Shown: piece after piece, positions 8,071 to 21,143 of the stretch | How the letters are laid out: each line of letters begins with the position of its first letter | Numbering within the stretch: position 1 is the first letter of the stretch | From: an uncultured delta proteobacterium | GTDB lineage: Bacteria > Desulfobacterota > Desulfomonilia > UBA1062 | Length of the DNA stretch: 64,000 nucleotides | Direction of reading: 5' to 3' | Assembly (NCBI GenBank): GCA_963752595.1 | Contig: CAVVYZ010000006.1 | Span: 1-64,000, forward strand | Notes under the pieces: generated by a model | The model's input: only the letters and a program-made list of their open reading frames with translations | Told to the model about the DNA's origin: nothing | The model's database searches: none | Position numbers and translations under genes: made by a program

Positions 8071-9120
8071 CTATATCCATAGCTCCCCGAGTTGATTGGA
8101 CAGGGTTGGCAAGAACATCTCATACAAGCTTCTTCCTGGATTGCTTTTGGATACATTCTTTCTTACACCGAAACGATAAATATTTTTCCGAATCTCTTTA
8201 GGGCCTGCTAAAAGAGGAAATCGAGTATAGACAGGGATTGAGCAATCCTGCTCAGGAACTGTACGTTCTTTATCCAGTTGGGATTTATAAGTATTGGAAA
8301 TGGTGCGCCTATGATTATTGTATTTTTCCAGTGCAGAAAGCGATCTTTTCGCCAGCCTCTTCATTGAAACCGACATGGGCGATAGGGGAAACTCAGGGTC
8401 AAAGATGGTTTTACCGAGCCCAAGAGGAAGCGTTTCCATCATTCCATAGAAATATGGATGAGACAGGACTTGCACAGCCATGCTCTGCATCAGCTTGTCA
8501 TAGCCTCTCGTGCTGCTTAACATAGGAAGCTTATCTAATAGCTCCTTTTCCTCGACTAGGGCGCCACCCTCTCCGATGGGCAGAGGTTTACCACGGCCGA
8601 AGCTGAACACGCCGAAATCTCCCATGGTACCTAGCGGGATGCCGTTCATGTATCCGCCAAAGCCTTGTGCTGCATCTTCTATGATAGGAATAGCATTACG
8701 ACTTGCTATTGCCTGAAAATCTTCTATTGGTTGCGGGATACCAAAGAGATGCTGATAGATGATTGCCAGAGTTTTGTCTCCTGCTGCCTTGCTGAGAGAT
8801 TCAGGGTCCGGACGTAATGTTTTAGGTTCAATGTCATACAGGGATATTTTAAGCCCTGCCCTTGCAACAGAGGCTGCCACGGAATAGCATGTGTATCCGG
8901 GGATCAATACTTCATTGCGGCCGTCATTATCTGCTGCTTTCAAAGCTTTGAGAAGCAGGGTCAATAATGCTCTGCCGCTGACGGCAAGCATACAAGCATC
9001 TACATTGAGGTATGAGCATAGATCTTTTTCAAAATCCGCTCTCTTTCCGAGCAAAACATCCATAAACGATAAAGGGTGAATATAGGTTTCTGCAGGTGTG
9101 TACCAGGACATAGAATTCAT
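8071..9120 (-). CDS. DegT/DnrJ/EryC1/StrS family PLP-dependent aminotransferase (C-terminus frameshifted, true end near 7980)
   Basis: SGRAL, EVLIPGYTC, HLFG, IIEDAAQG, FSFGRGKPLPIGEGG with PLP lysine. Confidence 0.85.
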   Translation of the reverse strand: MNSMSWYTPAETYIHPLSFMDVLLGKRADFEKDLCSYLNVDACMLAVSGRALLTLLLKALKAADNDGRNEVLIPGYTCYSVAASVARAGLKISLYDIEPKTLRPDPESLSKAAGDKTLAIIYQHLFGIPQPIEDFQAIASRNAIPIIEDAAQGFGGYMNGIPLGTMGDFGVFSFGRGKPLPIGEGGALVEEKELLDKLPMLSSTRGYDKLMQSMAVQVLSHPYFYGMMETLPLGLGKTIFDPEFPLSPMSVSMKRLAKRSLSALEKYNNHRRTISNTYKSQLDKERTVPEQDCSIPVYTRFPLLAGPKEIRKNIYRFGVRKNVSKSNPGRSLYEMFLPTLSNQLGELWI

Positions 9121-9149
9121 TATTATCTGTAGAACACCAGATTAAAGGA

Positions 9150-10208
9150 TTATAGAGAGATGAATCTTCGAACCACCGGCCCGATTATGTTTGTTATCGC
9201 CTGGGGAAGCTGTGACCATGCCTTCTCAACTATTTTCCTTGCTTTGCCGTTCGATGATGCAGCTTGAGATTGGGCACGATTGTTTGCCCCTTTTGTATAC
9301 CAGAATAGAGGCTGAGGTTTTGCCCCCCATTGCTCTTTAAACCTATATGTCCCTTCATCCTGGGGTAGACCGCCCGAAATCAAAATGTTAAATCCGTTGG
9401 CGCATGCGTATTCCAAAAAACCCCAATACAAGAAGCATATTGGGACTTAATTGGTTATATTCCCTTATTGTCGAAGCCCAGGGAATGGAAACCGTGTCCT
9501 TGCATTCCAGGACTATTCCTGCTGCAGCCAGGGATAGATTTCTTTATATACGATACCTACATGTCCTTTGCCATCAAAAGCATTCAATTACGGATTAATC
9601 CAATTTTTCGAATGAACCGGGGACCCAGATCACGCATATTTTTCTGGAAATACCTTATAAAATGATCGATCTTATCTAATGAGCCTATTTGAAATACAAA
9701 CCCTCTTTCTCAGGCTTTTTTATCTGGCTTCTTAGTTTGGATTTGAAAGTCTTTCAAGAGCTCTTCCGATGTTTCCGGCAGGTCGAAGCTTCATGCGGGT
9801 TTTATAGCTGGTATGAGAAAACTGAGGCAATTTCTGAAGAACTCAGGCTCACTATACTTGCAGCGTACATCCAGCTCGGCTTTCTGCGATGTTGCAAGAT
9901 CACACGCCTCCTGAATAAGCCTATCCGAAGCTTCGGTGCCCTGGGTAAGGATACCTCCATAATCACAAAATGGTTGCGAGACTAACACTTTCTTGAGAAA
10001 TGGAATCTTCATAAAAATCAGGGGAAGAACTCCCTGAATAATGCCCTCCTCATCTTCGGCGATAAGGTAAAAAGCTTCGTGGAAGTATGCGATCTCCTAC
10101 AGCCTTCTTCCAGGCATATAAATGATAGGGGCCACCATCTTCATGCGATCGGACATACGAATCCCATCTCTCTTGATCTCTATCCTCAGCCCTTCTGACG
10201 TGAATCAT
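9150..10208 (-). CDS. FemAB-like (GNAT) exosortase-system-associated protein, frameshifted
   Basis: WDSYVRSH, GVLPL, LVSQPFCDYGG, SPNMLLYW, GTYRFKEQWGAKPQPLFWY. Confidence 0.85.
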
Positions 10209-11368: not shown

Positions 11369-11553
11369 CTAATTCACCTGATATCTCTTCTCAATGTCCA
11401 AACATACTTCCTTCATTATTCCATCTACTTGGCTATCAAACACTACCCCCCTGTACTTTGCTGGGAATACCAAATGATAGATCAACACCGTTACGTTATG
11501 ACTCTTGTCTATGTATTCGCTCACTCCTTAATTCTACGCCGCAAGCCGCGGGG
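11369..11553 (-). mobile_element. tnpA: Truncated IS200/IS605-family element: end hairpin plus 51-aa TnpA N-terminus
   Basis: 11524-11369 translates MSEYIDKSHNVTVLIYHLVFPAKYRGVVFDSQVDGIMKEVCLDIEKRYQVN*, the Y1 TnpA signature YHLVFPAKYR, ending before the HUH motif; CCCCGCGGCTTGCGGCG hairpin upstream. Confidence 0.85.
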
Positions 11554-11632: not shown

Positions 11633-12606
11633 ATGAAATTGAAAACCCTTGTAAATAATATTCTTATTCTCGGGGCAGTTCTTGCATCTCTGGTTTTTCT
11701 GCTTTTATTTAATTTGGGAGAGGAGAAATCGCGTGTCCTCGATGCGATCTTTAACTTCGGGCATCTTCCACTTTTCGGTGTCGTAGCTCTGGTATTACTC
11801 TGGATTTTAAATAAGAAAAAATGGCCTGTCACAAACTACAGACTTTATCTGGCTTCCTTTACCGTCACATTGATTCTCGGGATCACTACGGAATTCCTGC
11901 AGCGGCTTACGCCTGATCGATACTTCGAAATTTCAGACATGCTTTACGATACGATCGGGGCTTTCACCTTTCTCACACTTGCATACCCTTCCCTGGGATA
12001 CATTGGGAGCAAAGTAAGTGCCTATAAGAAGGTCAGTATTCTCGTTATTATTGCAGCCGCCCTTCCCGTTTATCTGTCAGTTTTCGACACCTGGCGCATG
12101 AACAGGGATGTTCCGCTGCTCGGTTCTTTTGAAACACGCCTGGAAATGGAACGGTGGTCGGCAAAAACAGCACCTTCAGCCGATCGATGAAGCATGCAGT
12201 TCATGGATCGCATTCTCTGGAGGTGCGCCTTCAGCCCGGCCGGTATCCGGGGATTGCACTGGAATATATGTTTGAAGACTGGAGCGGATACGATTCTTTT
12301 TCGTTTGATGTGTATCTTGAGGGGAACGGCTCATTGCCTGTCGTTGTCCGGATCAATGACCTGCTGCATAATCAGATGTTCGACGACCGATTCAATAGGA
12401 GGTTTTTACTCAAACCGGGGAACAATCACATCTCGATCAGTTTGAGCGAAGTGAGAAAAGCACCACGGACACGGTCTATGGATATGAGCCGGATAAAGAA
12501 TATCTGTGTTTTCTCGTATCAACTAAAAGAGACGCGGGTACTGTTTTTTGATAATTTCAGGCTGGATGGGAAGGGTGATGCTTCGGGGGATGAGGTGCGG
12601 GAGTAG
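11633..12606 (+). CDS. VanZ-family membrane protein with C-terminal carbohydrate-binding-like domain (one frameshift near 12170)
   Basis: NFGHLPLFG, TEFLQRLTPDRYFEISDMLYDTIGA (VanZ), then HGSHSLEV..YPGI..DWSGYDSFSFDVY. Confidence 0.8.
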
Positions 12607-12612
12607 GTAAAG

Positions 12613-12738
12613 CCCCCTCTCCCCATCCCTCTCCCCCGTTTCCGGGGGAGAGGGGGATTTGGAATGGGTGTTCAGAATACCCCGGGCCGTTAAGCTTTAG
12701 TCCCCTCGCCCCCTTGGGGAGAGGGACAGGGAGAGGGG
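12613..12738. repeat. Inverted doublet of BoxC-like palindromic repeats, no gene inside
   Basis: Copy 12613-12657 CCCCCTCTCCCCATCCCTCTCCCCCG..CGGGGGAGAGGGGGA; 43-bp spacer; copy 12701-12738 TCCCCTCGCCCCCTTGGGGAGAGGGACAGGGAGAGGGG, same family as the 17251 copy. Confidence 0.85.
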
Positions 12739-12756
12739 TGGTCTTTGGATCGGGGG

Positions 12757-13527
12757 TTATCCCATGATTCTGATCGATACACCTGATGGTGCAGGAAGCG
12801 CTGTTCCATTACTGCTGTTCGAACTCGGCATGCCGTCCCATACCTCGTAGTCGTCGACCTGCCTGGAGAAGGAACCGGGCTCTTCGGCATCTATCGATGG
12901 CGCGTGGATGTAATACATCGTGTTGGTCCACTTGCCTCGGCCGAAGGTGTCGTTTACTTTCAGCGATCCATCGTACCAGAACTTGCTGACGCCGGTTGAG
13001 AACTTTATGTAGAACTCATAATGATGCCACTTACCGTCTACCTGATTCGGGCAGGTCAGCCATCTGCCGGCAGTAACCATCGAGCCCCGCGACATGGCCG
13101 AATAATAAACAGAGTTATTGCTGGACATGGCATAATGAACATAGCTGTCTATGCCGTCCCAGCGGGGGTAGAAAAATTTGATATTCTCATGAGCATCGGT
13201 GCTCCTGAATGTAGGGTAGCGCATCCAGAAGGAGACATACAATTCGTCGGTAGGCCATGGGTTGTAGATGTCTTTCTTCCAGAGCAGGTTGGCTTCATTC
13301 ACCGACCCTGATGAAAAACAGTAGCCTTTGCCGTTTCTTCCCACAGCACCGAGATTATATTGCGGAGGGGTCATTGGCGCCCAGTTATGTCCATAAACGC
13401 CGAATCTGCTGTCCAGAACCTTATCGTCGAAGTTTTCGTAGAAAACACGGTTTGCTGCGTATCCGTCTGCCTGACAGAGCATGAACACCAGCATGATCAT
13501 AGTTGTAATCTTTGCTGCGTGAGACAA
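12757..13527 (-). CDS. Secreted protein, predicted beta-jelly-roll (ConA-like/polysaccharide-lyase-like) domain; paralogue 1
   Basis: TTG start with GGAGGT SD, signal peptide ending GYA-A, aromatic-rich LYVSFWMRY, KWHHYEFY, KFWYDG; fold is inference. Confidence 0.7.
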   Translation of the reverse strand: MSHAAKITTMIMLVFMLCQADGYAANRVFYENFDDKVLDSRFGVYGHNWAPMTPPQYNLGAVGRNGKGYCFSSGSVNEANLLWKKDIYNPWPTDELYVSFWMRYPTFRSTDAHENIKFFYPRWDGIDSYVHYAMSSNNSVYYSAMSRGSMVTAGRWLTCPNQVDGKWHHYEFYIKFSTGVSKFWYDGSLKVNDTFGRGKWTNTMYYIHAPSIDAEEPGSFSRQVDDYEVWDGMPSSNSSNGTALPAPSGVSIRIMG

Positions 13528-13560
13528 AATATTACCTCCAGCTTTTTTTCATTAGATCGA

Positions 13561-13575
13561 GCAACAATCATACCA
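13561..13575 (-). promoter_or_regulatory. Sigma54 -24/-12 promoter
   Basis: Minus strand TGGTATGATTGTTGC (GG-N10-GC), 33 nt upstream of 13527 start; conserved in paralogous copy. Confidence 0.75.
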
Positions 13576-13632
13576 TTGGCATTACGGTATATATGCTCTC
13601 TTTTATATTCATAATGTGTTGTACCCCATAAT

Positions 13633-13664
13633 AAAAAAGGCCCCCGGGAAACCCGGAGGCCTTT
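13633..13664 (-). terminator. Rho-independent terminator (potentially bidirectional)
   Basis: AAAAAAGGCCCCCGGGAAACCCGGAGGCCTTTT hairpin with T tract on minus strand, downstream of the 13692 stop. Confidence 0.8.
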
Positions 13665-13691
13665 TAAAATGCTTATGGTACACTATCTTTG

Positions 13692-14804
13692 CTACATAAT
13701 GACTCTGATCGATATGGATGACGGGCTTTGAATGGTAGTTGTGCTGCTCCCGGAGGTACCTGCAGTAAATGAATAACTTTGCGTACCGGTACTATTTCCC
13801 TTGATATCCTTTGCGCTTGCGGCAACCTGGACCCTGGACCCATAGGCAAAGTTTGCAGGCGGATTATAAAACACGGTATAATCTGCGGCAGTCCCGGTAA
13901 TAGTCGGGGTGACACTGGTTCCGTTAATGGTAACCGCTATAGAAGACCTGTCCACACCGCTTCCTGAATCCTTGATATGGAATGAGATATTCGTGTTTGC
14001 AGGGACAGAGGTTGCCCCGACCGCAGGGCTCATGCCGCTGAATGCCGGCGCTGTAGTGTCGCTGGTAGTCCCGCCGCTTGGAGGAACAGTGCCGGTGCTG
14101 CCCGGTATGCCGTCCCATATCTCCAGGTCGTCGACCTGCCGTGAGAAATCTCCCGGCTCTTCAGCATCTATGGAAGGCGTGGAGATATAGTGCATGGCCC
14201 TTGTCCATTTGCCCGTGCCGAAGGTATCATTTACTATGAGCGACCCGTCATACCAGAATTTGCTGACCCCGGCTGAAAATTTCACATAGAATTCATAGTG
14301 GTGCCATTTGCCGTCGGCCTGATTCGGGCAGGTCAGCCATCTGCCGGCAGTAACCATCGTGCCATGTGCCATGGCTGAATAATACACGCTGTTATTACTG
14401 GACATTGCATAATGTACATACCCCTGTGCATTATCCCAGTGAGGGTAAAACAGCTTGATGTTTTCATGTGAGTCTGTCTGTCTGAAGGTCGGATAGCGCA
14501 TCCAGAATGATACATATAAATCATCGGTAGGCCACGGATTCGGGATCTGGTTTCTCCAGTGCAGATACGCCTCGTTGATTGTACCGGAAGTAAAGCTATA
14601 GCCTGCTCCGCTTCTTCCGACGGCATTCAGGTTATATTGCGGCGGGCTCAAGATAGCCCAGTCATGCCCTATTATCTGAAGCCTGCTGTCCAGCACCTTG
14701 TCATCAAAATTTTCATATAATAGGCGGTTTGCCGCATATCCCTCAATCCGACATAATAACAAGAGCAGTAGAACCATCGTAGTGAGCTTTATTATGTGAG
14801 ACAA
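13692..14804 (-). CDS. Secreted protein, same beta-rich domain plus Ig-like domain; paralogue 2
   Basis: TTG start at 14804 with GAGGGGGG SD; long blocks identical to paralogue 1; T/S/G linker then DTTAP..SP..GAT.VPANTNISF Ig-like module. Confidence 0.75.
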   Translation of the reverse strand: MSHIIKLTTMVLLLLLLCRIEGYAANRLLYENFDDKVLDSRLQIIGHDWAILSPPQYNLNAVGRSGAGYSFTSGTINEAYLHWRNQIPNPWPTDDLYVSFWMRYPTFRQTDSHENIKLFYPHWDNAQGYVHYAMSSNNSVYYSAMAHGTMVTAGRWLTCPNQADGKWHHYEFYVKFSAGVSKFWYDGSLIVNDTFGTGKWTRAMHYISTPSIDAEEPGDFSRQVDDLEIWDGIPGSTGTVPPSGGTTSDTTAPAFSGMSPAVGATSVPANTNISFHIKDSGSGVDRSSIAVTINGTSVTPTITGTAADYTVFYNPPANFAYGSRVQVAASAKDIKGNSTGTQSYSFTAGTSGSSTTTIQSPSSISIRVIM

Positions 14805-14841
14805 GATTATTCCCCCCTCTGAGTTTTTTAAAACCAATGGA

Positions 14842-14856
14842 GCAACAAACATACCA
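14842..14856 (-). promoter_or_regulatory. Sigma54 -24/-12 promoter
   Basis: Minus strand TGGTATGTTTGTTGC (GG-N10-GC), 14/15 identical to the 13561 site. Confidence 0.75.
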
Positions 14857-14999
14857 CGCATACTGCGGTGCCATGCGACTATCCGGACTTGCTTACCTTT
14901 ATCAAACTTTCATTTTATCGATTTTTAGCTGATATCGTTCAGTTATACTCCTGCTTCGACGTGGTATCTTTGGTAAGACGAAGTGATTTGATAAGAAGC

Positions 15000-15030
15000 A
15001 AAAAGGCCCCCGGGAAAATCCGGAGGCCTC
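15000..15030 (-). terminator. Rho-independent terminator, near copy of the 13633 hairpin
   Basis: AAAAAGGCCCCCGGGAAAATCCGGAGGCCTC; T tract on minus strand downstream of AsnB-like gene. Confidence 0.7.
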
Positions 15031-15214
15031 AATAAATCGCATATGTCCGGCAAATATCTAAAATATCTCGTCGATTAACCAGCTTTCGTAAAAGCTGGTT
15101 GAATATCCTCGGCTGTGCCTTATTATTAATTATAATTAACAGCTCTTTCAGCCGGTTTTCTGCGATTATTGTAACTCATTCGTCAGTATTGTAACAATCT
15201 CTTAGATAATCTCA

Positions 15215-17074
15215 TTATTTCAATACTATTGGATTATGTTTTACTGAGGCAGCATCCTGCCTCAGTCTCATCTCGAGGGTCAGCATATTCCCGAGCTGGT
15301 TATGGTAAAGAAAACGATTCGTCCCGGCATCTTGGTAAAACCTTTCATACTTCTTGCGATCATAGAGATCTCTGGTCACAAGCGAATCATAGCTGAATGC
15401 ATCCGAAAATGAATCGACGGCAAAGAGGGATGAAAAATAAGAGGATTGCTGATAGGCAATTGATTTATCCACGAATATCGTGCGGCCCATGGTCTTTTGC
15501 ACAAGCTTCCGGATGCCCCTTTTCCCATAGTCTGCAACTAATGGTATGAACTTGTGCGCGTTCTGAAAACTGATGTTCCGGCATGGCGTTCCATTGAGCA
15601 TTTTCTGCCCTGAGAGCGGCCAGGAGAGACTCTCAATGATGCTCTTCACAAGCCTGCCGTTCCTCTTATACCATGGCGGTACAGTCAGGACCGATTCAAC
15701 GCATCTCTTCATGGTAAGCGGTGTCAGCGCCCCTACTATCTGATTGGAGGAGCTGATGGTTCTGCCTGCCCACCTCCTTACCTTCTGCCTGAAATACAGG
15801 TTGTCTATCTGGAGCGTATTGTATGAGCGGCTGAGGTCCATATCGGAGATGGATTTCTGAAATTCATCTTTAAGAATGTTTTTTATATTGGTCATCCCGG
15901 GCATAAAATCAGGTGAAAACAGTGAGTAGTCATATTCATACTGGAGCACCCGTGTATTGATCAGCCTGTCCAGATTGGCCGGCCTTTTTGAACCGGTTAT
16001 TTCCTGGATCCACCAGAAATCGCGATATACTTCCCCCCCTAACCCGTTGATCGAATATTCATGGCCGTTCGATTTAAAATCCTGTGCCCAGAGGATCGGC
16101 GCATAGTTGAATATGTTTTCCTCACCGTCGGTTATGGTAAGGGCCCTTTTTACATAATCATAGATTCTCTCATCCCAGTCTTCCGGCAGGGTGAGGTGAT
16201 TGTTCCTGAATCCAAACGTCTTGCAGTATCCTTCAACCAGGTCCACTTCCCGGGATCCATCGGGCCCGAAAACAAAGGTGTGGATGTCCTTCAAGGGTTT
16301 GAACATGGAAAAAACGGATACAATCAATCGCGAATCATACCCTGCGGTGAAATCGCAAATCACGTCTTCTTTTGATAATACTTCAAAAGCCTTGATCAGA
16401 TTGTTTATGAGTGTATCCCGTGCTTCCTGAAAGGAGATTCTCTCGTGTATCTCCACCGGGCTTTGCCAGTATCGTTTTTTCGTTTCTCTCACCTCTTTCG
16501 GAGTGATCCGGAATGAGTATATGGATGCAGGATCTAATAGCTCGATTTCATTATATATCGTATCAGGTCCATAGACCGTTGCTCCTCGAAGAAACTGGGC
16601 AATAGCTTTCTCATTGCGGGTAACCGGATAATTGCGTGAAAGCGCCATGGATGACGAGCTGATGGAAAACACCGGTCCTGAGCGATACCGGTACATATTC
16701 ATGATGCCGGCATGGTCGGTTATTATCCTGAAGCCATTCTCCTTGCGGTTCCTGATCAACATGCAAAAAGGTCCGTCGCAGGAATCGACCAGACTCTCGA
16801 TGGGCTTATCCATGAGATCGCGCTTCAAGAGAGCTATCGCTTTCTCGCCCAGGCTATCTTTGTATATCAGCGTGCCCACAACCCATATGTCCGTTTCCTC
16901 ATGTTTGGCGTTATCCCTGAAGTCTGAATTCTTCCTGGAAAGCTTCGATAGCCGGAAACTTTTATGCTTTTCATCCCAGTCATTCCTCAAGCCCTTGTGC
17001 TTTACAAAAAAATCCAGAGCCTTTTCATGGCTTTTATTAACATTATTACCAATAGTTATCAGGATACCTGCCAT
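15215..17074 (-). CDS. Asparagine synthetase-related amidoligase (no N-terminal Cys)
   Basis: 619 aa; DGPF, TDHAG in Ntn-like domain; TAGYDSR PP-loop variant; NGLGGE. Confidence 0.8.
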   Translation of the reverse strand: MAGILITIGNNVNKSHEKALDFFVKHKGLRNDWDEKHKSFRLSKLSRKNSDFRDNAKHEETDIWVVGTLIYKDSLGEKAIALLKRDLMDKPIESLVDSCDGPFCMLIRNRKENGFRIITDHAGIMNMYRYRSGPVFSISSSSMALSRNYPVTRNEKAIAQFLRGATVYGPDTIYNEIELLDPASIYSFRITPKEVRETKKRYWQSPVEIHERISFQEARDTLINNLIKAFEVLSKEDVICDFTAGYDSRLIVSVFSMFKPLKDIHTFVFGPDGSREVDLVEGYCKTFGFRNNHLTLPEDWDERIYDYVKRALTITDGEENIFNYAPILWAQDFKSNGHEYSINGLGGEVYRDFWWIQEITGSKRPANLDRLINTRVLQYEYDYSLFSPDFMPGMTNIKNILKDEFQKSISDMDLSRSYNTLQIDNLYFRQKVRRWAGRTISSSNQIVGALTPLTMKRCVESVLTVPPWYKRNGRLVKSIIESLSWPLSGQKMLNGTPCRNISFQNAHKFIPLVADYGKRGIRKLVQKTMGRTIFVDKSIAYQQSSYFSSLFAVDSFSDAFSYDSLVTRDLYDRKKYERFYQDAGTNRFLYHNQLGNMLTLEMRLRQDAASVKHNPIVLK

Positions 17075-17183
17075 TGTTATCCATCCGATCGAATTATTTT
17101 TTGTTCATACGACAGATCCATACCTTGCCCACTCAAGGCATCTCCTTATTATTCAAACACCCACCTCAGCCGGATATATTCAA

Positions 17184-17289
17184 CCCCCTCTCCCACAACC
17201 GGGCGAGGGAAAAAGGAAAATTATATTTTAGAATAATAGTTGGGATTAAAGTCCCCTCGCCCGCTTGCGGGAGAGGGACAGGGAGAGGG
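17184..17289. repeat. Left BoxC-like doublet: degenerate copy 17184-17210 plus full copy 17251-17289
   Basis: GTCCCCTCGCCCGCTTGCGGGAGAGGGACAGGGAGAGGG ends 1 nt before the DUF559 ATG. Confidence 0.9.
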
Positions 17290-17290
17290 C

Positions 17291-17641
17291 ATGACCAAAC
17301 TCCATACCCAATACGCCAAAGAACTGAGGAAGCGATCCACTGATACAGAGCGCCTTCTGTGGAAGCATCTCCGAGCGAAAAGAATGTTCGGACTGAACTT
17401 CAGACGTCAGCATCCAATAGGTAATTACATTGTTGACTTCATCTGTTTTGAGAAAAAGATCATAATCGAACTCGATGGCGGGCAGCATGCATCTTACAGC
17501 GAGAAAGACAAGACTCGCGATTCCCGGCTTGAAGGCCAAGGTTTCCGGATTCTGCGATTCTGGAATAATGATGTTTTATCCAATACAGAGGGGATTCTGC
17601 AGATGATAATGGATGCTTGCTTGGGGGATGAGGGGATTTGA
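17291..17641 (+). CDS. DUF559 (YcjD/Vsr-like) endonuclease-domain protein
   Basis: AKELRKRSTDTERLLWKHLR, FRRQHPIGNYIVDF, IIELDGGQH, DKTRD, GFRILRFWNNDV. Confidence 0.92.
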   Translation: MTKLHTQYAKELRKRSTDTERLLWKHLRAKRMFGLNFRRQHPIGNYIVDFICFEKKIIIELDGGQHASYSEKDKTRDSRLEGQGFRILRFWNNDVLSNTEGILQMIMDACLGDEGI

Positions 17642-17646
17642 ATTTA

Positions 17647-17850
17647 CCCTCTCCCTGTCCCTCTCCCGCAAGCGGGCGAGGGGACGTTTTGGTCCTGGGT
17701 CGGAATAAGGATGGGTCCCCCTCTCCCGCAAGCGGGCGAGGGGACTCTAGTATCATAGTCCGCAATAATCCAAACATCTATTCTTTTAATTCCTCCCCTC
17801 TCCTTCTGCTTCTTTCTTCTGTCTCTTCCTCTCCCCTCGTGGGAGAGGGG
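17647..17850. repeat. Right BoxC-like repeats: full 17647-17685, core 17718-17745, degenerate 17828-17850
   Basis: 17647-17685 is the exact 39-bp reverse complement of 17251-17289. Confidence 0.9.
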
Positions 17851-17859
17851 GTTTTTGCA

Positions 17860-19953
17860 TCATGTATTTAATAAGCCAAGGTATTTTATCCATTTGAGGG
17901 TATTATCGAGCCCTTTATCAACGTGTGTGTCAGGGCAGTAGCTCAGGGTATTTCTTGCGAGGGTGTCTGAGTACAGTACGTTTCTGGTAAAGAGTTTCAG
18001 TTCATCTGGAGCCGGGGTTGTTTTGACTGCATGTTCGAGCTTGCGCATCATTGCGTCGACGAAATCGATCGTTTCTGCAACCTTTTTCACCGGCTTCAGG
18101 AAATATCTCTTTACAAAACCGCCCAGCACCCTCACCGGCTCCATGATGTAGGTCGTTGCATCGGCTCTGCTGCTCCTGATAGTCTTGAGCGGGGGAAGGT
18201 TCATGGCATTGTTCAGCCGCGTAAAGTATTCATTCCACGAGATCACTTCAGGGCCGTTTATATTGAATGCCCTTCCAAGAGCTTCCTCTTTGTCGAGGGC
18301 GTTCATGATCGTTTTTACCAGGTCGTCCACATACACGAGGTTGCATTTTCCATCCCCATACTTCTCATAGATGCCCCATTCCCGCGCAAGGAACATGGCA
18401 GCAAAACGTAAGCACCAGTTATTGCTGTAAGGCCCGTATACTATGGAAGGCCTGAAGACCGTTATCGGCAGGCCTTTTCCGTGATATTCCCAGCAAACCT
18501 TCTCTGCATCGATCTTCATCCGGTTATACTGGTTGCCGGTGTAATGAAACGGATACCCCTCATCGATGATACCCGCAACATCGCCGTATACATCTGCGGT
18601 GCTGAGATGGATGAAATGCTTGATCCCCTTATTGAGAGAGGCCTCCAGGAGGTTCCTGGTGCCTTCTACGGTCACCTCGGGAGTGCCTTTTGCACAGTGA
18701 ACCACATGGGTAATGCCGTCCAGGGCGGCATTGATCCCGCCCTTATCCATGATATCAAGGTCAACGATATTCACGGGCAGCCTACCCAACCGGGCCGCTC
18801 CGGACCACTGCCTGAGCCCTGCAGTGACGGAATACTGCTTGTTTTGCGCAAGATGAGCCATCTCGGCAATCCGGCCGCCGATGAACCCCGTTGCACCCGT
18901 TACCAGGATATTTCTTTCCGCCTTTAAGCCTTTTTTTGCCTTTCCGTTGGGTGTTATCCTGATATTCCTGTCCCAGGGCATGTCGAACCTCTTCCTCTTT
19001 TCATAGCACTCGTGGATGAAATCAAGAGAAGCAAGGACCTCTCTGCCGCTGACGAGCGGCTCCTGTATGCCCTTGAGGACCTGGACGAAGTTATCGAAAA
19101 CCGGCTGCACAAAGCCGGGATAATTTTTTGAAGGGCTCTTGATCTTCTGCTCATAGGTTTGGTTCGTTCCGCTCCTTATGGCAAACCTAGTCCACTCGAA
19201 GATCTTTCCTTCTATGGTCCCCCTCTCACAGACGACACGATAAGTGTTTTTCAGGTCGCACAGTCTGTTCAAAGTGACTGCTGCGGCACATCCGCCTTTT
19301 TCTGCCCGTATCTTTACGACTGACTCAGGACCTCCATAGGAATCATCGAGATATTCGATAAGGTCAGGCTTTTCGCCGATCCACCAGCAGAGGGTATCGA
19401 TGACGTGAGAACCAAGGTCGAGCAATATGCCTTTTGACGAAACCTTCGGATTTACATAAAAGCCCGTAGGGCTCGGCCATCCGAAGGTGCTCCCTTCCTG
19501 ATAATCGATCTCCAGGATCCTGCCGAGCCGGCCTGATTCAACTATTTCCTTCACTTTCCGGAAATTCGGGAACATCCTCCTCGTATTGTTGACGCAGAGG
19601 GCAGCCTTGTTCTTTTCTGCAGTTTCCACCAATTCCCTGGCTTCACCGGGCAGGACGGCCAGAGGCTTTTCGCAAAGCACAGGCACTCCTGCCTGCAAAA
19701 AATCCATTGACACCGGGTGGTGCAGACAATGTGGAAGGAGCACGACAGCGCCGTTTACCTGAGCAATGACATCACGGTAGTTGTCGCTTACCTGCCCGCC
19801 GTTCAATTCCTTCCGGAGCATCTCGGCATTGCCGATATTCGTATCTACAAAGAACAGTCCTTCCGTGAGTTCGGGGTGGCTTTTCAAGGCCGGCACATAA
19901 TACCTCCGGGCGACAGTCCCGCAGCCGATAAGTGCAATCTTCGGTAAGATCAT
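17860..19953 (-). CDS. Gfo/Idh/MocA oxidoreductase fused to NAD-dependent epimerase/dehydratase
   Basis: IGCGTVA, LCEKPLA, DLGSH in N-half; ILVTGATGFIGG, YNRMK, RPSIVYGP in C-half; 697 aa continuous. Confidence 0.9.
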   Translation of the reverse strand: MILPKIALIGCGTVARRYYVPALKSHPELTEGLFFVDTNIGNAEMLRKELNGGQVSDNYRDVIAQVNGAVVLLPHCLHHPVSMDFLQAGVPVLCEKPLAVLPGEARELVETAEKNKAALCVNNTRRMFPNFRKVKEIVESGRLGRILEIDYQEGSTFGWPSPTGFYVNPKVSSKGILLDLGSHVIDTLCWWIGEKPDLIEYLDDSYGGPESVVKIRAEKGGCAAAVTLNRLCDLKNTYRVVCERGTIEGKIFEWTRFAIRSGTNQTYEQKIKSPSKNYPGFVQPVFDNFVQVLKGIQEPLVSGREVLASLDFIHECYEKRKRFDMPWDRNIRITPNGKAKKGLKAERNILVTGATGFIGGRIAEMAHLAQNKQYSVTAGLRQWSGAARLGRLPVNIVDLDIMDKGGINAALDGITHVVHCAKGTPEVTVEGTRNLLEASLNKGIKHFIHLSTADVYGDVAGIIDEGYPFHYTGNQYNRMKIDAEKVCWEYHGKGLPITVFRPSIVYGPYSNNWCLRFAAMFLAREWGIYEKYGDGKCNLVYVDDLVKTIMNALDKEEALGRAFNINGPEVISWNEYFTRLNNAMNLPPLKTIRSSRADATTYIMEPVRVLGGFVKRYFLKPVKKVAETIDFVDAMMRKLEHAVKTTPAPDELKLFTRNVLYSDTLARNTLSYCPDTHVDKGLDNTLKWIKYLGLLNT

Positions 19954-20017: not shown

Positions 20018-21143
20018 TCAGGAGAGCAAGGACAGATAGAGGGCTTCTGTCTTTTTTACCATCAGACCGGCTGAAAACCTTTCCCCTACGAGCTTTCTCC
20101 CTTCATCAGCCATGATCCGGGCATGTTCGGGCATGGTAGCGATATCCCTCATTCTCACGGCCATGGCATCGACATCGCCGGGAGGGATCAGGTATCCTGT
20201 TATACCATCTTGTATGAGCAAGGGGATGTCGCCAACCGAGGTGGCGATGATTGGAATGCCGCAGGCCATTGCCTCTAACATCACATAGGGCAGCCCTTCG
20301 GTAAAAGACGGGATAACCAGACAGTCAATATTCCGATAGAGTTCTTTGATGTTCTTCCTCACCCCGCAGAAAAACATCCTTTCCTGAATATCCAGCATGC
20401 GTATCAGCCCAAGGATGTTCTCTTTTTCAGGCCCATCTCCTGCAATCACTCCGAAATTGCCGGGAAACTCAAAGAAGAGGTTTGCAAATGCATTGAGAAA
20501 GACCGCGTGGCCCTTATCCGGGAAGAGCCTGCCTACTACGGCAAAGATCTTTTTGTCCGGAGCCTTGGCAACCGGCAGCGAGCGGTTCGGGACCATGATA
20601 ATGTGTGTTCAATAGATCCGCATCGAACCCGTTCTGAATAAGCTCGATCCTGTCGCGTCTTAAACCCTTGCCCGACAGCTCAGCGAGCAGGTCTTTTGAT
20701 ACGGCAATGACCTTATCACAAGAGCGGTACACCCCATGTTCGTCAAGGTAGAGGTAAATCCTCTTCATCAGCGAATCCTTTGTCGATCCGTGTGCCGTGG
20801 CAATCCTCTTTACCCCGAGATTAAGGGTGGCCAGGAGCCCATAGAAATCCGATTTGAAGTCATGGGTATGGATGAGGGAAACGTCATGCGACCGTATGAA
20901 TTGCCGGATGCTCATCACGGCACGGACATCAAACCTGCCGTTGACATCTATGGGCTCGACTTCAAAGCCCATGTTCCGGGCAAGATCGATGAGGGGCTCG
21001 CTCCTTCCATCCGGCCTTCGCATGCAGAGCAGGGAGAAATCGAACAGGCCGGGGTTTAAATTCTTCCCCAGGGTCATGATCACGCGCTCACTGCCGAAAA
21101 TACCGCTGCTGTCGCGTATATGGAGGATTCGATGCCTTTTCAT
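20018..21143 (-). CDS. Glycosyltransferase family 4 (one frameshift near 20590)
   Basis: IFGSER, IHTHDFKSD, VGRLFPDKG, EGLPYVMLEAMACG. Confidence 0.9.

Follow-up and report, generated by a model that had tools for sequence, protein, structure and literature searches.

BoxC repeats have, to our knowledge, stood without an origin or a partner since the 1990s. Holder et al. (2015; PMC4666352) defined them, as BoxC/PIT/TM-ECO, as an intrastrand-triplex motif with the consensus C-rich 9-mer, loop of 3-6 nt, G-rich 9-mer, 3 nt, G-rich 9-mer. According to the same work the motif forms a triplex in vitro with no stable triplex in vivo, PIT elements stall DNA polymerase in vitro without an effect in vivo, variability is raised around the motifs in E. 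coli, and an antiparallel purine triplex of this kind is unable to form in RNA (PMC4666352). The text of that paper states that transposases and integrases were never found near the motifs, and mentions neither ycjD nor the word 'nuclease'. A known case of a repeat family with a partner gene is REP/RAYT, which also appears under the names REPtron, BIME and REPIN (PMC2817692; 10.1101/2021.07.10.451892); there, inverted cognate repeats surround the gene, repeats form alternating arrays, protein and repeat co-evolve, and presence of the gene is tied to abundance of the repeat (PMC2817692), the rayt gene itself being single-copy and fixed (10.1101/2021.07.10.451892). DUF559 proteins, by contrast with RAYTs, have the PD-(D/E)xK Vsr fold, not HUH/Y1, and are described as being of unknown function or as putative repair nucleases (PMC3424549, PMC12907096). 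Genetics link one of them, Caulobacter VsrA, to a cytosine methylase, and a role in mismatch repair was proposed for it (PMC12907096). A published table lists DUF559 genes as 14-fold enriched among predicted targets of programmed inversion (PMC9881135), which could be explained by flanking inverted repeats such as those described here. No link between DUF559 and BoxC was found in the literature that we searched, subscription journals and the original BoxC and PIT papers being outside its reach.

Here we describe a DUF559 gene between inverted BoxC repeats in a 64,000-nt stretch of DNA from an uncultured delta proteobacterium (the window). As far as the literature searched goes the gene-repeat system is unpublished, and it is real and widespread. 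We give a probability of roughly 0.6 to the reading that it is a mobile cassette whose nuclease likely recognises and spreads both the repeats and its own gene, that is, a counterpart of REP/RAYT whose enzyme is a Vsr-fold nuclease and in which, we infer, this enzyme moves the repeats.

The nuclease gene and its repeats in the window

The gene lies on the plus strand, antisense to the two EPS genes on either side (Table 1), between repeats of 39 nt each. Its ATG stands 1 nt past the left repeat, whose tail appears to occupy the position of a would-be ribosome-binding site, and the right repeat begins 5 nt on from the TGA. This arrangement had been described in a sequence-only reading of the window and is borne out, as are the extra copies that it listed around the gene and the pair 4.5 kb away. 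The three flanking extra copies (17184, 17717 and 17825) are partial, being hairpin-only or having a decayed tail, and the outermost on the left stands hairpin to hairpin with the left repeat, the two making a doublet. The distant pair joins a member of a long-hairpin subtype (12615-12654) to one resembling the cassette ends (12700-12737). The same reading held each full unit to be a hairpin with one mismatch, which fails as a general feature: the hairpins at 17825 and 12627 fold without any, and among 148 stems the central pair is perfect in 112 and of T:G type in 13, which rules out the mismatch as a general recognition feature. Folding z-scores of single units are modest (-1.2 to -3.6), a promoter and terminator scan returned signals at chance level only (among them the terminator-like T run on the plus strand after the hairpin at 17825-17851), and Rfam gave no match at gathering score over 12000-18500. 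No RNA run was listed as containing this DNA, and four sequencing runs with small shares yielded fragments of depth 2-5 only, none of them across the cassette.

Table 1. Features of the cassette, the distant doublet and the neighbouring genes (positions in the window)
Feature	Position	Strand	Basis
DUF559 / YcjD-type Vsr-fold nuclease gene, 116 aa	17291..17641	+	PF04480 1.3e-42
Left terminal repeat: hairpin + purine tail towards gene, BoxC/TM-ECO triplex motif	17251..17289	+	
Right terminal repeat, exact reverse complement of left	17647..17685	-	
Outer left hairpin, tail-less, oriented as right-end copies	17184..17209	-	
Hairpin copy within 60-nt-period direct duplication of right end (50 nt, 78% identical)	17717..17749	-	
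Outer right perfect hairpin, decayed pyrimidine tail upstream	17825..17851	-	
Whole insert vs same-genus relatives; left junction +/- ~20 nt	17101..17857	.	intergenic gap comparison
Gene-less repeat doublet, tails outward	12615..12737	.	
Downstream host gene, asparagine-synthase-like amidotransferase of EPS cluster	15215..17074	-	weak matches, below cut-off
Upstream host gene, fusion of a Gfo/Idh/MocA oxidoreductase with an NAD-dependent epimerase	17860..19953	-	

The likeness to BoxC noted in the earlier reading proved exact: the unit at 17254-17289 fits the published consensus without deviation, and our pattern finds 23 copies in E. coli K-12, the number given by Holder et al. (PMC4666352). 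The present comparison extends the published motif by two more sequence types and by a gene that is cognate to it. The core pattern occurs at 15 sites in the window's own genome and at none with the reversed control, so the sites are not due to chance. That genome (an 84%-complete assembly) holds about 20 repeat copies in all and one DUF559 gene. By eye, some 12 of these copies belong to the longer-hairpin subtype, which is unlike the cassette ends and often tailed on both sides (sites C1:136977, C1:293717, C13:10163, C16:701 and C22:160124 of the assembly, and 12627 of the window); a cognate gene for this subtype was not found in the 84%-complete assembly. Among 194 tailed units the tail is a mirror copy of the purine arm of the hairpin in 86 and a direct copy in 3, the other 105 being ties because their arms are symmetric. 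Mirror co-variation in this proportion is the signature of an antiparallel purine triplex, and points to selection on a triplex formed in DNA.

The protein matches the DUF559 profile with 144.5 bits against a cut-off of 20.6, over positions 3-108 of 109, and is the sole PF04480 match in its 84%-complete genome; by this score it belongs to the DUF559/YcjD family, which includes PDB 3hrl and Caulobacter VsrA. E20, D49, E60, D62, G63, Q65, H66 and D73 are invariant among 78 aligned homologues, and the putative catalytic set (E20, D49, D62, H66 and D73) is intact. A structure model (pLDDT 85.6) matches 3hrl, 3r3p and 1vsr, with E-values of 7e-9 for 3hrl, the top match, 1.6e-5 (TM 0.64) for the catalytic domain of I-Bth0305I and 1e-2 for Vsr; the closest characterised fold is that of a homing endonuclease. 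I-Bth0305I is an EDxHD enzyme (PMC3239194, PMC2677866) with the same catalytic fold and matching acidic and histidine residues; in our own reading of the alignment, D49, D62, H66 and D73 would correspond to its D196, N208, H213 (one residue off) and D222, active-site residues named in PMC3239194. It differs in that the repeat-flanked DUF559 proteins have structured repeats at both ends and neither a NUMOD/HTH region nor an intron or intein. No N-terminal DNA-binding region of that type was found in the window protein, which at 116 aa is a nuclease domain alone. Profile searches with the ORF returned DUF559/MTES_1575 matches only, and neither these nor the fold search gave a DDE, serine or tyrosine recombinase or an HUH/Y1 enzyme.

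The region around the distant doublet has features of its own. Between 12757 and 14861 lie two tandem paralogous genes with direct repeats of 300 and 236 nt (79% and 70% identical); the one scanned has no Pfam match, a similar 30-nt hairpin follows each (13633 and 15000), and genome G004 has more copies. The loci of G004 that cover 12615-12737 contain no match to the repeat pattern, and the site is rearranged there, so that it offers no clean junction. A weak Y1-transposase-like stretch, broken by stops and below cut-off (E 7.6e-4), lies at 11372-11494, 1.1 kb from the doublet, and neighbouring genes at 8071-9431, 11633-12606 and 20018-21143 look frameshift-split.

Gene and repeat in other genomes

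Comparison with other genomes established, at the level of sequence, a common layout, presence and absence at orthologous sites, cassette limits at the foot of the hairpin, repeat variants bound to protein clades and a link between gene and repeat abundance. Related loci number at least 593; in the 80 best of them a hairpin unit lies within 150 nt of an end of the DUF559 domain in 76 cases and on both sides in 64, whereas for 160 further ORFs from these loci the figures are 15 and 3. Such counts overstate independence, as a small number of the loci are closely related or duplicated. The enrichment of repeats at DUF559 genes that the earlier reading had predicted is therefore present. Tails point strictly inward, as in the window, at 43 of the 64 two-sided loci and outward at 4, and the distance from the end of the tail to a start codon downstream is 0-13 nt for 29 of 43 genes that stand alone. 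When each upstream flank was compared with the reverse-complemented downstream flank of the same locus, the median score was 17, compared with 9 for other loci and 8 for shuffles (160 loci, the full 165 minus five with short flanks). Twenty lower-scoring homologues, picked for few or no pattern matches in their genomes, mostly bear variant repeats in the same layout. The order hairpin, tail, gene, tail, hairpin is thus, as far as these sequences go, family-wide.

The repeats also vary with the protein, as had been predicted. On a tree of 165 domains (a quick search over 105 columns with many open forks, the repeat types being labelled by hand-made patterns) type A repeats dominate a clade of 125 rows (support 97), type B a clade of 18 (98), and type C repeats sit on small clades; single genomes hold genes of different clades, each with a different repeat type. 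In genomes with genes of one clade only, the dispersed repeats are of the type that goes with that clade in 21 of 30 cases for A and 9 of 14 for B (p=0.002, in a test that drew on 80 of about 105 matches), a result that weakens to p=0.06 once 3 cis copies are removed. One genome, G155, holds 480 type-B repeats, and only A-clade genes were found in it. As for the genes themselves, 5 of the 165 domains contain a stop or N, and among 20 pairs, of which 17 gave a value, the median dN/dS is 0.11, one pair standing at 0.84; these values indicate that orthologous, apparently fixed copies are under purifying selection.

Abundance gave a divided answer. With kinship incompletely corrected for here as in the second group, the gene was found in 79 of 201 Pseudomonadaceae genomes, the median number of repeats being 74 with the gene and 0 without, and it is present in 1 of 78 repeat-free genomes, in 59 of 73 with at least 20 repeats and in 49 of 56 with at least 50. 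The contrast persists among the 64 genomes of at least 5.5 Mb (107 against 1). The gene usually occurs in one or two copies per genome, at loci common to several Pseudomonadaceae species, and the 30 best loci, which form 7 flank groups, have a repeat on at least one side in all 30 and on both sides in 10. Across 250 mostly fragmented genomes of the window's own phylum, 64 of which have the gene, the medians are 8.5 and 0, or 5 and 0 after removal of cis copies, with a flat reversed control; within the 23 informative families, however, the association goes up in 12 and down in 10, with 1 tie (permutation p=0.20). The expectation that copy number follows gene presence thus stands for Pseudomonadaceae and fails within own-phylum families. 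The earlier reading had also named repeat-rich genomes lacking DUF559 as an outcome that would count against it, and these exist in part: 14 of the 73 Pseudomonadaceae genomes and 17 of 38 own-phylum genomes with at least 20 repeats gave no gene match. None of the refuting outcomes that it listed came about in full. A Y1/RAYT mobiliser as the source of the repeats finds no support in the five genomes searched, where a repeat lies within about 1.5 kb of only 2 of the 15 Y1 loci; G166 (2 contigs, 100% complete) has no Y1 transposase at all, yet it contains 212 repeats and a single DUF559 gene.

Empty orthologous sites, likewise predicted, were found for the window cassette and for an in-frame one. 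Both host genes are linked in six genomes of the genus, and the insert is missing from all six, the intergenic gap measuring 785 nt in the window and 43, 24, 25, 25, 23 and 350 nt in the relatives; two further loci contained one host gene only. The 350-nt gap (L107, genome G011) holds a different palindromic repeat family of GTCATTCCC type, and on that account the spot between these EPS genes would seem to attract repeats. The family may resemble Neisseria dRS3.

In 20 of the 80 loci the domain lies within an open frame of at least 330 codons. The 21 in-frame host proteins scanned include ValRS, Mfd, PriA, HrpA, RecO, EarP, an M14 peptidase, HsdS and methylases (the host genes thus include hrpA, priA, valS, mfd and recO), and the repeats translate to proline/glycine-rich linkers; intein models gave no match on the three repeat-flanked in-frame hosts tested. 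At one hrpA site, parsing succeeded for 25 of 34 loci, of which one duplicates another, and the 24 distinct alleles comprise 13 empty sites, 1 with a lone repeat, 2 doublets lacking the gene, 7 in which gene and repeats occur together and 1 unrelated insert, all in frame. One hrpA allele (L093:344-5029) carries in-frame repeats at several positions, with the nuclease domain at a second site and a gene-less doublet at the first. MITEs and the Rickettsia RPE (PMC3184786) are likewise small structured repeats found in frame in protein genes; here, in contrast, a nuclease domain travels with the repeats and a target duplication was not found, either among the hrpA alleles or over 42 cassettes (2.8 nt against 2.6 nt in a cross-locus control, the insertions being old and some edges imperfectly defined).

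The cassettes end where the repeats end. Judged by eye, similarity begins or ends at the hairpin foot in 12 of 22 compared pairs, those without other flank match, although repeat conservation alone could yield part of this effect; for the window, similarity to locus L024 starts exactly at 17251 and similarity to L002 stops exactly at 17685. One genome holds two 709-nt copies, 93% identical, at different sites, and a genome may have up to 7 DUF559 matches. The family comprises 22,934 clusters at E <= 1e-10. Some of its proteins (P0001-P0005) bear two or three DUF559 domains, and three deeper homologues (L010, L012 and L021) lie inside inteins, with TIGR01443 above cut-off and no flanking repeats; a Vibrio phage match (H114) is annotated as a hint-domain protein. 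Phage records gave 4 weak matches in 50,697, and 47 of 72,556 plasmid records have a match, mostly megaplasmids.

The assignment of E. coli YcjD to DUF559 in the earlier reading is correct: the protein is so annotated, and is 47% identical to the window protein over 99 aa. Repeats are found on the 3' side of ycjD only, motif 9 of Holder et al. sitting 165 nt behind it and a decayed copy at the gene end, with none upstream. The whole ycjD locus is present in 3,346 of 5,426 E. coli genomes, most of the remainder having eefRABCD there (an operon described in E. coli; PMC12817139); about 2,050 of the 5,426 lack ycjD and still have BoxC matches. Alleles without ycjD were considered as empty sites and rejected, since eefRABCD is found there instead. 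Loci L104 (1706-2261) and L117 have ycjD and BoxC at the fabI-sapF site, where other phylogroups have the eefRABCD efflux operon, and the ycjD cassette may mark the loss of that operon.

What might move the repeats

Set beside REP/RAYT, the system shares inverted flanking repeats (64 of 80 loci) and co-evolution, the match in trans being weaker; the tie to abundance is strong in Pseudomonadaceae and vanishes within own-phylum families. An HUH/Y1 transposase and a single-copy gene at one extragenic site, both typical of REP/RAYT, are not what was found. The analogy drawn in the earlier reading accordingly survives in its comparative predictions, which came out mostly favourably, and breaks down where the DUF559 gene, unlike rayt, changes sites, reaches up to 7 copies and enters coding sequence. 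By comparative criteria the system is REP/RAYT-like, yet it is not a member of that class, having another fold, a triplex-type repeat with a mirror third strand and a moving gene that enters coding sequence.

A mechanism compatible with these features can be sketched. The repeat would fold into a purine-motif triplex on DNA made single-stranded by replication or transcription, and the nuclease would bind the folded repeat and nick at or near the fold. Recombination repair, without target duplication, might then place a copy at a new site or in an array already present, the unit copied being a lone repeat, a doublet or the complete cassette, and recombination between copies in the same direction could delete the gene and leave repeats, which we propose as the origin of the single and doublet alleles in hrpA. 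Copies in frame would be borne by their hosts since they sit in permissive loops and neither the repeats nor the domain shift the reading frame, so that no splicing domain is needed. We know of no strand-transfer activity in a lone 110-aa nuclease.

Could the gene instead be a parasite of repeats that something else multiplies? As a homing-type element it would cut at or near an existing BoxC repeat and be copied in by repeat homology, a reading that accounts for the flanking repeats, for the matching of clades and for the finding that hardly any repeat-free genome has the gene (1 of 78). The homing endonuclease I-Bth0305I as a fold relative, the repeat-only and gene-bearing alleles at one hrpA site and the existence of repeat-rich, gene-less genomes all fit it too. 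We nevertheless regard it as unlikely, because no other mobiliser came to light among the Y1 loci or in G166, Holder et al. report that transposases and integrases were absent from the neighbourhood of the motifs (PMC4666352), and apparently fixed orthologous copies stay under purifying selection. That selection, together with the usual one or two copies per genome at loci common to Pseudomonadaceae species and the block that PIT elements pose to DNA polymerase in vitro (PMC4666352), might also suggest a domesticated antidote: host recombination or slippage would spread the repeats, these would block replication, and repeat-rich hosts would retain an enzyme that resolves them. This is less probable still, as it leaves unexplained why the gene is bracketed by cognate repeats at many unrelated sites and within essential genes, an in vivo effect of PIT elements was not seen by Holder et al. 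(PMC4666352), and the E. coli genomes without ycjD retain BoxC matches.

The Vsr fold of the model and the proposal for VsrA, whose DUF559 domain acts with a cytosine methylase (PMC12907096), raise the further question of whether the protein is a Vsr-like mismatch-repair nuclease and the repeats are expression signals or passengers; the closeness of the tail to the start codon in most stand-alone genes would suit an expression signal. Repeats also bracket in-frame copies, however, which need no start signal, T:G-type pairs are confined to 13 of 148 stem centres, the window protein scores 20.2 bits on the TIGR00632 Vsr model against a cut-off of 97.85, and at this locus the neighbours are EPS genes with no cytosine methylase adjoining. 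We consider a role of this sort very improbable. We favour the mobile cassette, and the DUF559 family is likely the missing partner that spreads BoxC repeats. A bolder version, to which we give slightly less than even odds, would make this a new class of mobile DNA: a Vsr-fold nuclease of 110 residues, descended from or ancestral to intein and intron homing endonucleases, would recognise a folded triplex, not a sequence, create and maintain the BoxC repeats, of which a genome can have about 500, in many bacterial phyla, and insert its own gene along with the repeats, in frame, into genes for housekeeping proteins.

Linking BoxC to DUF559 makes both questions testable together in E. coli K-12, which has ycjD, with oligonucleotide substrates. 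If the proposal is true, a further enzyme class would join the known movers of DNA, a natural nuclease that recognises a triplex would have been found, and the sporadic DUF559 'fusions' in helicases, synthetases and methylases would be explained as insertions.
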